Source of the DNA: Heterodontus francisci
Taxonomy: Eukaryota
Reading direction: 5' to 3'
Assembly: GCF_036365525.1 (NCBI RefSeq)
Contig: NC_090413.1
Location: forward strand, 26,860,262 to 26,924,261
Length of the DNA stretch: 64,000 nt
The notes beneath the pieces are model-generated. The model saw only the letters and a list, made by a program, of their open reading frames with translations. It made no database searches and was not told where the DNA came from. Made by a program: the position numbers and the translations under genes. Of this stretch, positions 13,387 to 16,709 are shown piece by piece (position 1 is the first letter of the stretch; each line of letters starts with the position of its first letter).

Positions 13387-13512
13387 TCACAGCAGAAGGC
13401 AGGATTTTGGGGGTCTGAAGGGATTATCGCCAGATGGAACCCCCACAAGCAGGAGATCTTTGTGAGCATTTTGAAGACAAAAGTTTTTCAGATCCACAGC
13501 TGCTTGAGAAAC
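13387..13512 (-). CDS. G-gamma gene, second coding exon
   Basis: [41 protein letters not shown], with a CTAAC branch point and CAG acceptor at 13513-13530. Confidence 0.93.
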
Positions 13513-16500
13513 CTGTAATGGTAAAGTTAGAACGAAATCAGGAATAAACTACTGGCGCTGTGCCCACAGCACATGGTTGTAGAAAATGGTGCACTGGGAT
13601 GTGTACAATATATGCTTTTAAGTGATTTATTTATAGCTCATGCTGGGGTGTGGAACATAACTGCAACTTGGGGAGCTGTGAATAATGTAGATGAGGTGAG
13701 GTGAGGCAGGGCAGAGATAACTGAACAAATGAGGAAGCCTGTTGAAAATCATGAAGGGTTTGGATAGAGTCATAAAAGAGAAACTGTTTCCAACGGGTGA
13801 AGGGTCGATAATCAGAGAGTACAGGTTTAAGGTGAATGACAGAAAAACCAGAGGTGGCATGAGGAAAAACGTTTTCACACGAGTGGTTAGGATTTGGAAT
13901 GCACTGCCTGATAGGGTGGTGGAAACAGACTCAATAGGGAATTGGATAAATACTTGAAGAAAACAATTGCAGGGATATGGGGAAAGAGTGAGACTAACTG
14001 GATTCAAAAGATTCAATGCGCCAAATGGCCTCTTTCTGTGCTGTACTTGACTATATAATTGCAATATAATACAATAGAGCCAATATTACATGAACCAACT
14101 TCTCTGCAGCGCCTAGCCTAGTTAGTCTAATTCATTTTTCTCTCAATGTTCCGAGTGACTACAGGGCTACGGACCAAATGCTGGATGGTGGGATTAGACT
14201 GGATGGCTCGTTTTTTGCCTGGTGCAGACACGGGCCTAGTGGCCCCTTTCTGTGCCGTAAACTTTCTATGCTTCTATGAGTCGCCTCAATGTACACAGTG
14301 TTAGCTCAATAATTTTCCCACAGAACAGCTGGATGGGGTTCCTGGTTTTGAAAAACATTAGGAGATAAGTCGCTGTTAGACACATAATTTAACAAATGAC
14401 ATAGTATGTGTCTGTTCGAAACGTAAGCTGGCTCCTCCCTCCAACTTCTCAAGATCTGGAACTATGTAAGCTGGGACACGGCTTACGAAAACAGCTGGTT
14501 TCCAAACTCCCTTCAGCGTCACAGGGACCTTTCAGCTGAGGCAAGAATTGAAGCTACAGCTTTGGCCTCAGTGCTCCTGGGGAGATGGAGAGGGAAATAT
14601 CGGCCTGAGATCCTGATCTTTGATTCCCACCCTGATTGCCACCTGGAAAGTGTATACACAAATTACAAGACATAACCTTAAAATTTGAGCTAGGCCGTTC
14701 AGGGGTGATGTCGGGAAGCTGAAATGTGATGCCCTCCCTTGCTTAAATAACCCGAGGACATGCACTGTCTGGCCCCTTACATGAAGAATGGGTGGTGGGT
14801 GCAGGAGGCTGCTGATAGTGCTGCCACTGTACCTTGATATGGGCTGTAAGCATCAGGAGAGGAAGGGAAAACTGGATGGGGCAAGAGTCCAAGTCAAGTA
14901 GTTGCGGGAGAGGAGTCAGCACAGTTCACTCATTGTTTTAGTTCTTGGAATGGACCAGAGTGCTGATGAACTGCCTGCCTTGCTTTATGCTTTACACATG
15001 ACCCTGAGCAGACGGTCAGACACTGAGTGGCTTTGTTTCATAGTACAGTCAGCAGTAAGCCCCAAACAAAGGGACAATTACATCCATATTGCAATTAATA
15101 AAGTTTCCCCATTGCTAAGAGCAGAATATTTTTCACTCCTCCTATACTTGCACATATTCCTCCAGCTCTCTCGATCCCACCACTGCCTGTGTGATCATAT
15201 TATTGGTCCCATATCCAGTCTTCAGATCAACTGCATTTTCCTCCATTTAACATTAGCAGGACTGAAGCTATTGTTTTCAACCTCCATCACAAACTCTGTT
15301 CCCTAGCCACTGACTCCATCCCTCTCCCTTGCCACCGCCTGAGGCTGAACCAGACTGGACACAAACTCACAGTCCTATTAAACTCTTGAGATGAGTTTCC
15401 AACCCCATATCCTCTATCAACAAGGCCACATTACCTCTGTAATACTGCCTATCTCCAGCACTGCCACAGCACATCTGCTGCTAAAACCCTTATCCATATC
15501 CTTATCACTGCCAGACTTGATCCAACGCTGTTTAGCCCACCTCCAAGAAAACTCTGCTGCCATTATCCTAGCCCAGGCCATTTGCTACATCACTTCCCAA
15601 ACCCCATCGCCTCCAACTCAATTGCTTTGTGTTTAAATATACCCATTTACCCACCCCTATGCCTTTTTACCCTGCTCCATCCATACCCTCCCCCCTCTCC
15701 GTCATCCTCCTTCCATCCTTCCTCCTTCGCCCTCCCTCCTCCACTCCATCCTCCTTTGCCCTCCCTCCCCTCTCCATCCTCCTTTGCTCTCCCTACCTCC
15801 TCGCCATCCCCCTCCCCCTCTCCATCCTCCTTTGCCCTCCCTACCTCCTCTCCATCCTCCTTCTCCCCCCTCGCCTTGCTCCTCCGCCCTCCCTCCCCTT
15901 TCCTTCTTCCTCCGACCTCCCTCCCCCTTTCCTTCTTCCTCTGACCTCCCTCCCCCCTTTCCTTCTTCCTCCGACCTCCCTCCCCCCCTTTCCTTTTTCC
16001 TCCGCCCTCTCTCCCTCCTTTCCTTCTTCCTCCGCCCTCCCTCCCCCCTTTCCTCCCCCCTCCGCCCTCCCTCCCCCCTTTCCTCCCCTCCCCCCTTTCC
16101 TCCCCTCCCCCCTCTTCTTCCTCCGCACTCCCTCCCCCCTTCCTCCTCCGCACTCCCTCCCCCCCCCTCTCCTCCGCCCTCCCTCCCCCCTCCTTTCCCC
16201 TCTCCTTCCTCCTCCACCCCTCCTTCCTCCTCCACCCTCCCTCCCCCTCTCCTTCCTTTGCCCTGCCCCCTCTCCTTCCTCCTTTGCCCTCCCCCCCCTT
16301 TCCTCCTCCTTTGCCCTCCCCACCTCTCCTACCTCCTTTGCCCTCCCCACCTCTCCTCCCTCCTTTGCCCCCCCTCTCCTCCCTCCTTTGCCCTCCCCTC
16401 TCCTCCCTCCTTTGCCCTCCCCTTCTCCTCCCCTCTCTCCTTTGCCCTCCCCCCCTCTCCTCACTCCTTTGCCCTCCCCTTCTCCTCCCCTCTCTCCTTT

Positions 16501-16709
16501 GCCCTCCCCCCTGTCCTCCCTCCTTTGCCCTCCCCCCTCTCCTGTGCCCTACCCTACCCCTCCCCTCCTTTGCCCTCCCCCCCCACTCCTTTGCCCTCGC
16601 ATAGTGTTTTCTGTCCAGCTCCCACCTTGAGGCGCTCCATACTGGCCTCCAGCCGCAGTTGCTCCACCATTTTCTGCAGCTGAACGCTGCCACTGTTACT
16701 GTTCGACAT
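13387..16709 (-). CDS. Heterotrimeric G-protein gamma subunit, GNG5/GNG10-like (69 aa, CaaX = CLLL)
   Basis: Exon 16709-16626 encodes [28 protein letters not shown] and is followed by gtggga. Exon 13512-13387 follows the acceptor ctaactttaccattacag and encodes [41 protein letters not shown]. The phase-0 intron sits at the canonical G-gamma K|VS position, and the NPF motif and CaaX box are intact. Confidence 0.93.
13737..14062 (+). mobile_element. CR1 LINE 3' fragment
   Basis: [16 protein letters not shown]…[17 protein letters not shown]. Similar fragments at 10580-10870, 10170-10350, 2495-2680(-), 5410-5775(-), 28310-28580 and 42140-42355(-). Confidence 0.85.
15650..16598. repeat. About 950-bp C/T-rich low-complexity tract (TCCTCCTTTGCCCTCCC-like units)
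   Basis: Almost purely pyrimidine on the + strand, with recurring degenerate units. It produces spurious Pro-rich and Gly/Arg/Glu-rich ORFs. Confidence 0.95.
16626..16709 (-). CDS. G-gamma gene, first coding exon
   Basis: aacATG start, 28 codons (…[17 protein letters not shown]), AAG|GTGGGA donor. Confidence 0.9.

Follow-up and report, generated by a model that had tools for sequence, protein, structure and literature searches.

A stretch of 64,000 nucleotides from the horn shark Heterodontus francisci (contig NC_090413.1, positions 26,860,262 to 26,924,261; hereafter the window) carries, on its minus strand, a real gene for a G-protein gamma subunit (G-gamma). Very likely, this gene is a functional third member of the GNG5/GNG10 subfamily, that is, an ohnolog from the early vertebrate genome duplications that was lost in tetrapods and whose product would be an ordinary geranylgeranylated partner of G-beta. 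A sequence-only reading of the window had already proposed an ohnolog of the 19p13 paralogon, and the core of that proposal is upheld by separate GNG5 and GNG10 loci in the same genome, by a paralogous block of genes and by splicing observed in contigs.

The two coding exons (see the table) join into an intact product of 69 amino acids with no internal stops, as had been claimed from the division into 28 and 41 codons. The spliced product is identical, letter for letter, to RefSeq XP_067877357.1 (stored protein P0055), a Heterodontus francisci protein named 'gamma-10-like', and it matches the Pfam G-gamma family PF00631 over residues 8-68 (E 2.9e-17; 62.9 bits, with a cut-off of 27.1) and gamma-2 chains at E 5e-15. 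A search of the ESM Atlas returned G-gamma clusters only. As in the rest of the family, a phase-0 intron before VS separates two coding exons, with borders AAG/GTGGGA ... TTACAG/GT (slashes mark the splice sites), and translated exon 2 contains the previously noted DLLL and NPF motifs followed by the C-terminal CLLL box and the stop. In effect, because RefSeq already annotates the exact protein, the gene is not hidden, and that part of the sequence-only reading was dropped. An AlphaFold2 monomer of the protein consists of one long helix (residues 4-46; mean predicted local distance difference test score 80), and Foldseek with this model gave no match at E 0.001, its 16 weak matches coming without exception from G-protein complexes (template-modelling score ~0.35); as expected without G-beta, the monomer model and its fold search seem uninformative.

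Contigs from four of six listed runs, covering two organisms and two studies and of a guessed RNA type that is not on record, were compared with positions 9000-15690. In all four runs, a single contig bridges 13350 to 11792 across a GT..AG intron, and the gene thus has a third, non-coding exon, which would end at the minus-strand AATAAA at 8949-8954. The stop codon lies 37 nt ahead of this last exon junction, and a stop at such a short distance escapes nonsense-mediated decay. An intron in the 3′ untranslated region (3′ UTR) soon after the stop, giving three exons, is a trait of the GNG5/GNG10 subfamily and is present here as the 13349/11793 joint; donor-like sites are found 6 nt after the stop in the GNG10 gene and 26 nt after it in the GNG5 gene of this genome, and mouse Gng5 and Gng10 have three exons each in the available text of PMC3944967 and PMC9678972. 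At the other end of exon 2, the contigs leave the genomic match at 13514, carrying 104, 26, 104 and 82 extra letters in the four runs. The two extra matched letters at this point fit an AG with which acceptor and exon 1 both end, and a continuation of 104 letters would reach into the T-run at 16731. Contig ends are therefore compatible with the exon 1-2 junction, the letters of which are not displayed, since the compared stretch excludes exon 1 and places this joint beyond direct view. Thus, of the spliced reads that the sequence-only reading had proposed to look for, splicing is present in contigs from two studies at the 13349/11793 joint, while for the 16626/13512 junction itself it is only indirectly suggested.

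Some observations concern the start of the transcript. Positions 18830-18995 form a candidate shared promoter with ACTTCCGG and TACGTCA motifs, which we take to be ETS- and CRE-like, respectively. Within it, the plus strand may carry a short first exon of CLPP (ATG at 18969, donor after 18989), and on the minus strand a donor-like AAG/GTGAAA at 18840 could mark where a first, non-coding exon of the G-gamma gene stops. In Scyliorhinus, RefSeq isoform X2 (P0057) has an unrelated first exon joined to the same exon 2 and lacks the N-terminal helix.

The same genome contains both sister genes. A genome search for the G-gamma family scored 27 candidates and yielded 15 matches, three of which were of the GNG5/GNG10 type after translation: GNG5 on assembly sequence C8 (10.85 Mb), GNG10 on C4 (177.81 Mb) and the window gene on its own sequence, C43. 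No fourth locus of this type was found with the full window protein as the query (11 matches among 23 candidates). The intron lies at the same codon position in all three genes, in agreement with the earlier claim that its position is canonical. On C8, SPATA1 stands head-to-head with the G-gamma gene, and Brix-domain (RPF1-type) exons, which were missed by a Brix family search, found through a motif scan and confirmed by Pfam, stand tail-to-tail with it. RPF1 is presumably also next to Gng5 in mammals. Likewise, mouse Gng5 is head-to-head with Spata1 in the available text of PMC3944967. The C4 gene follows, at a distance of 28 kb, a DnaJ exon of the same strand, and in stored protein P0181, the end of a DnaJ-type exon is spliced onto GNG10 exon 2. 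This arrangement at C4 is, we assume, the one named DNAJC25-GNG10. The check for separate loci that had been suggested therefore finds both, one beside SPATA1 and RPF1-type exons and one behind a DNAJC25-type gene, and, because they occur in the same genome, the outcome said to refute the ohnolog, a genome with no other GNG5 or GNG10, is not observed. The window gene is neither head-to-head with SPATA1 beside RPF1 nor directly behind DNAJC25; these positions belong to other genes.

The block around the window gene is paralogous to the block around GNG5. A search for the DNase II family gave eight exon matches from 10 candidates and just two genes, at C8:10.90-10.93 Mb and C43:26.83-26.84 Mb. 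They are 58 kb from GNG5 and 37 kb from the window gene, respectively, both tail-to-tail, and their last exons are 46% identical. An SSX2IP-type gene is present on C8 at 8.67-8.70 Mb, which in the assembly is 2.1 Mb from GNG5 and not adjacent to it, and the window contains a gene of the same SSX2IP/ADIP family with 39-74% identity per exon to the C8 gene. Since pairs of DNase II and SSX2IP-type genes flank both G-gamma genes, the two chromosomes have the order DNase II - G-gamma - SSX2IP in common. The window SSX2IP-like gene was absent from the list given by an ADIP family search of the genome and was not singled out when protein P0007 was searched against the genome. Neighbours in the two blocks presumably map to human 1p22 and 19p13, and we take humans to have one SSX2IP only; the window SSX2IP-like gene may thus be another ohnolog lost in tetrapods. 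In the available text of PMC12284397, pairs of this paralogon from the two rounds of duplication (2R) are on chicken chr8/chr30 and chrZ/chr28, and C43 would represent the chr30 type. Two features expected of a 2R ohnolog are observed here: the two blocks have paralogous neighbours, and relatives occur in the shark and the bony-fish lineages, which makes the duplication older than their split. Furthermore, two teleost gene models fuse a relative of the window gene with an SSX2IP-like part.

Relatives of the window gene are widespread among fishes. With exon 2 as the query, 52 of 63 longer candidates and all 102 of near-query length were returned, and these 154 rows were typed by their best local score against three references per group (window type, GNG5 and GNG10), giving 137 window-type, nine GNG10 and eight GNG5 rows. 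The 111 window-type rows with species names (26 are unnamed) come from sharks, sturgeon, paddlefish, bowfin, many teleosts, coelacanth and lungfish. None of these 111 is a tetrapod, and the six tetrapod-named rows returned by this word-filtered search are all of the GNG5 type; ray, chimaera, gar and bichir gave no row among its returns. An index-free search, in its best 150 of 247 matches, added 123 new rows, of which 70 are GNG10, 50 GNG5 and three window-type, one of the three from a cichlid. The window protein is 77-84% identical to five shark relatives and 68-77% to 14 bony-fish ones, compared with 59-68% to 13 GNG5 rows and 59-65% to eight GNG10 rows. Consequently, a shark-only gene was rejected, and the earlier view of an extra isoform in this lineage does not hold.

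Outside sharks, the closest matches to the window protein are teleost genes of the si:dkey-204f11.64 type (76-90% over exon 2), a name that UniRef gives to the stickleback protein P0005. These genes belong to the tree group of the window gene, have a link to SSX2IP-like sequence in the two fused models and are annotated as 'gamma-5', 'gamma-5-like' or 'gamma-10'. In contrast to the shark gene, they are two per genome (Takifugu rubripes is present in both clusters of teleost copies), have DPLL instead of DLLL and often end their CaaX box with Phe.

There are likenesses to both sister genes in the protein. Of 15 diagnostic columns, 7 to 8 agree with GNG5 and 3 to 4 with GNG10. GNG5 is approached in the intron position, the 3′ UTR intron, the CLQN-x-x-x-D-x-LL core, the NPFRP-x-K tail, the Leu-ended CaaX box and alignment columns K16, R22, D38, F42, S58, P65 and K67, as well as in the DNase II and SSX2IP-like neighbours of its paralogous block, whereas the overall identity given above, GVPS-x-D in place of GVSSST and a location away from SPATA1 set the two apart. 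GNG10 is approached in columns P57, S68 and L71, in KD-x-LL-x-GVP, in its three exons and in the RefSeq name, but identity is again low, the EPRSC tail is lacking and the true GNG10 is separate on C4. The sequence-only reading had described a mix of both genes, and both kinds of state are indeed present; nevertheless, they are scattered along the chain and are a property of the whole window-type group (20 rows), which adds residues of its own at N41 (15 of 20 rows) and D60 (18 of 20). The combination is best understood as a set of ancestral states that the group retained, joined by residues specific to it, and not as a mosaic. Similarly, DLLL does replace the usual DPLL, as stated before, but this is a shark-wide trait: it occurs in five of the 137 window-type rows, all from sharks, with DPLL in the other 132, and in all six shark rows of the tree alignment. 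GNG10 also lacks the proline, with DALL in seven of eight rows, and the proline of DPLL therefore seems dispensable. The CaaX Cys is kept in 94 of 95 short window-type rows, of which 43 are Leu-ended and 50 Phe-ended, and the window protein keeps all 19 invariant columns of alignment A1.

The tree was calculated from 47 rows chosen by hand out of several hundred (20 window-type, 13 GNG5, eight GNG10 and six GNG7-type rows as the outgroup) and 70 columns. Without the outgroup, the unrooted tree has three separate groups, window-type (85/64), GNG5 (96/78) and GNG10 (100/99), and the C8 and C4 genes fall in the GNG5 and GNG10 groups, respectively. The clade of GNG5, GNG10 and window-type rows is separated from the GNG7-type rows, the sole other GNG class present, with 100/100 (41 rows against six). 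Adding the outgroup leaves the window group without a verdict either way (p 0.498), and the same is true of the sequence in which the three groups branch. The best tree has the window gene outside the GNG5 clade, and the GNG10 clade is also formed without it.

Several points weigh against a third ohnolog. The tree is short and weak, and support for the window group is only moderate and not starred. Approximately unbiased (AU) tests allow the window gene to be placed with GNG5 (p 0.114) or GNG10 (p 0.132) and also allow a shark-only duplicate of GNG5 (p 0.131), and the rooted branching order gives no support for the sister relation with GNG5 that would be expected. Because the alignment is short and the AU tests do not reject nesting, the case leans on synteny and distribution more than on the tree. 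Regarding distribution, the absence from tetrapods derives from word-filtered searches plus the best 150 of 247 matches, and a diverged orthologue could have slipped past them. Regarding synteny, the bony-fish evidence consists of the two fused models, whose SSX2IP-like part has no preference for the window copy over the C8 copy. Finally, the exon 1-2 junction is deduced and not read from contig letters, the RNA nature of the runs is a guess, and G-beta binding, prenylation and tissue expression of the protein are predictions from the family.

If not a third ohnolog, the gene could be the fish orthologue of a strongly diverged mammalian GNG14, and it would then have a human counterpart, a great-ape pseudogene. 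Human GNG14 presumably lies at 19p13 with MAN2B1 and DNASE2 on either side, which is also the interval of the window gene, and the finding of no separate GNG7/12-type locus on C43 or in the 144 kb around the window speaks for this reading. GNG14 is a real mammalian G-gamma gene, pseudogenized in the great apes, and the available text of PMC12462614 describes it as having two exons, in contrast to the three of the window gene. In addition, the catshark 'Gng14' has bovine gamma-12 as its best match and, by eye from the printed probe in the available text of PMC11589584, a KKPCIIL tail of the GNG7/12 type, whereas the window gene's relative in catshark is another protein (P0321). The catshark gene thus indirectly places GNG14, compared here by description only, with GNG7 and GNG12, from which the window clade is well separated in the tree through the GNG7-type rows. 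No mammalian gamma-14 appears among the named matches of the exon 2 search or of a search for GNG14 with a GNG7-type exon (22 of 22 rows returned, none named gamma-14). Searches on C43 and of the horn shark assembly turned up no gene of the catshark 'Gng14' type, and a family search for deoxyhypusine synthase, chosen as a marker of the GNG14 neighbourhood, gave 0 of two candidates. Altogether, we consider a GNG14 orthologue unlikely. The earlier statement that the gene has no human counterpart is likely correct, with the GNG14 question addressed indirectly.

A somewhat less probable origin is a later segmental duplication of GNG5, in which case the genes of sharks and bony fishes would not make up a single orthology group. 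The AU test that joins the shark rows to shark GNG5 and the moderate group support leave room for it; nonetheless, the best tree has an advantage of 8.3 log units, the shark rows are 68-77% identical to bony-fish relatives as opposed to 60-62% to shark GNG5, and divergence is deep between the DNase II and SSX2IP paralogues on the flanks. The AU test rejects a duplicate of GNG10 confined to sharks (p 1.4e-10). Much more improbable is a true mosaic produced by recombination or gene conversion between GNG5 and GNG10. It would explain the division of the 15 diagnostic columns, but the states are interspersed and not in blocks, they are common to all 20 group rows over ~400 million years alongside the group's own N41 and D60, and the donor genes are on other chromosomes. 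Just as hard to credit is a decaying or non-functional copy broken by the change from Pro to Leu in DPLL. This change and a longish end branch of the window gene (0.24-0.27) point in that direction; against them stand the presence of DLLL in every aligned shark row, the missing proline of GNG10, the intact invariant columns, open reading frame, splice sites and CaaX box, and spliced contigs in two organisms.

If the gene is indeed a third ohnolog, an ancestral GNG5/GNG10 gene would have left a third surviving copy in the block paralogous to that of GNG5, which sharks, ray-finned fishes (with a further doubling in teleosts), coelacanth and lungfish would have retained and the tetrapod line would have lost. 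Its three-exon mRNA would produce the 69-aa chain, whose N-terminal helix would coil with G-beta. Cys66 of CLLL would be geranylgeranylated, as suggested by Leu at the X position, the last three residues removed and the Cys methylated; the lipid would anchor G-beta-gamma at the membrane, where the dimer would support receptor coupling and then act on effectors after activation. These steps, from geranylgeranylation to a membrane affinity tuned by the tail, are proposed from family knowledge. In the available text of PMC9678972, X = Leu directs geranylgeranylation, and the G-gamma tail tunes membrane affinity, with gamma-5 and gamma-10 in the medium class. Most likely, the product would be a broadly expressed subunit with medium affinity for membranes whose role overlaps that of gamma-5 and gamma-10. 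A more ambitious proposal, for which we have limited confidence, is that this unnamed orthology group, retained by all sampled lineages of jawed fishes up to lungfish (twice in teleosts) and lost at the origin of tetrapods, fulfils a non-redundant signalling role of its own in fishes and is more than a backup for gamma-5 and gamma-10; if true, many annotations of fish genes as 'gng5' or 'gng10' refer to the wrong gene.

The gene is already annotated, although across fishes under the names of its sister genes, and the group is unnamed: within it, RefSeq uses 'gamma-5', 'gamma-10' and even 'gamma-12'. Because one group bears several names, expression or knockout results from fish that are read onto mammalian GNG5 or GNG10 can concern a different gene. 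No description of the group was found by keyword in open-licence literature; a 2010 zebrafish paper reportedly lists 17 G-gamma isoforms and may already name the teleost copies. Loss of Gng5 in mouse is embryonic lethal, according to the available text of PMC3944967, and the one or two extra close paralogues of fishes could mask such a phenotype. No new mechanism is involved; the gene would complete the duplication history of GNG5/GNG10 and add one ohnolog lost near the water-to-land transition.

Table 1. Features of the window (positions counted from its first nucleotide)
Feature	Positions	Strand	Details
DCAF15 exon	588..716	+	E 4.8e-19; convergent with the G-gamma gene
G-gamma exon 3, non-coding (3′ UTR)	8949..11792	-	Contig pieces over most of 9000-11790; putative 3′ end
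G-gamma intron 2, within 3′ UTR	11793..13349	-	1,557 nt; GT..AG; joint in 4/4 runs, two studies
G-gamma exon 2	13350..13512	-	41 codons plus TGA at 13512-13387 (DLLL, NPF, CaaX CLLL); 37 nt of 3′ UTR
G-gamma intron 1	13513..16625	-	3,113 nt; phase 0; GT..AG; contigs depart from genomic letters at 13514
Degenerate purine/pyrimidine tandem repeat in intron 1	15705..16598	.	~0.9 kb; purine-rich; periods 7-104
G-gamma coding exon 1	16626..16709	-	84 nt; 28 codons from ATG; N-terminal helix; GT donor, phase 0
CLPP-type exons	22330..27331	+	Head-to-head with the G-gamma gene
SSX2IP-like (ADIP) paralogue	31369..45539	+	Matches the C8 gene in ten collinear exons
Lysosomal alpha-mannosidase (MAN2B1-type) exons	55857..62080	+	

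The DCAF15, CLPP-type and MAN2B1-type exons, of genes that the sequence-only reading had listed at human 19p13, all lie within the window. Beyond it, the C43 DNase II gene is 24 kb before its start, and a TRM1-type methyltransferase gene is ~32 kb after its end. Positions 32064-32320 on the minus strand hold an intronless, 5′-decayed copy of RPS12 (E 1.9e-39 to eS12), antisense between two SSX2IP-like exons, which is a processed pseudogene. An open frame of 208 codons on the plus strand (19527-20153) has no Pfam match and resembles, in our judgement, the 3′ end of a long interspersed nuclear element.

Other G-gamma genes were also observed. Hagfish P0255, a partial G-gamma outside the row set of the tree, combines a GNG10-like tail with DPLL and is useful for rooting the subfamily. 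A G-gamma exon and its flanks are identical between C3:29.54 Mb and the small contig C1586, probably an unmerged haplotype. Two near-identical transducin-gamma-type exons on C2 (118.79 and 118.90 Mb) are 110 kb apart, the second with an in-frame TGA; the pair is a recent tandem duplicate that has since decayed. The genome also has three GNG7/GNG12-type genes, at C4:126.38 Mb, C36:9.39 Mb and C8:67.46 Mb, and the first of them may be a further ohnolog with no human counterpart.

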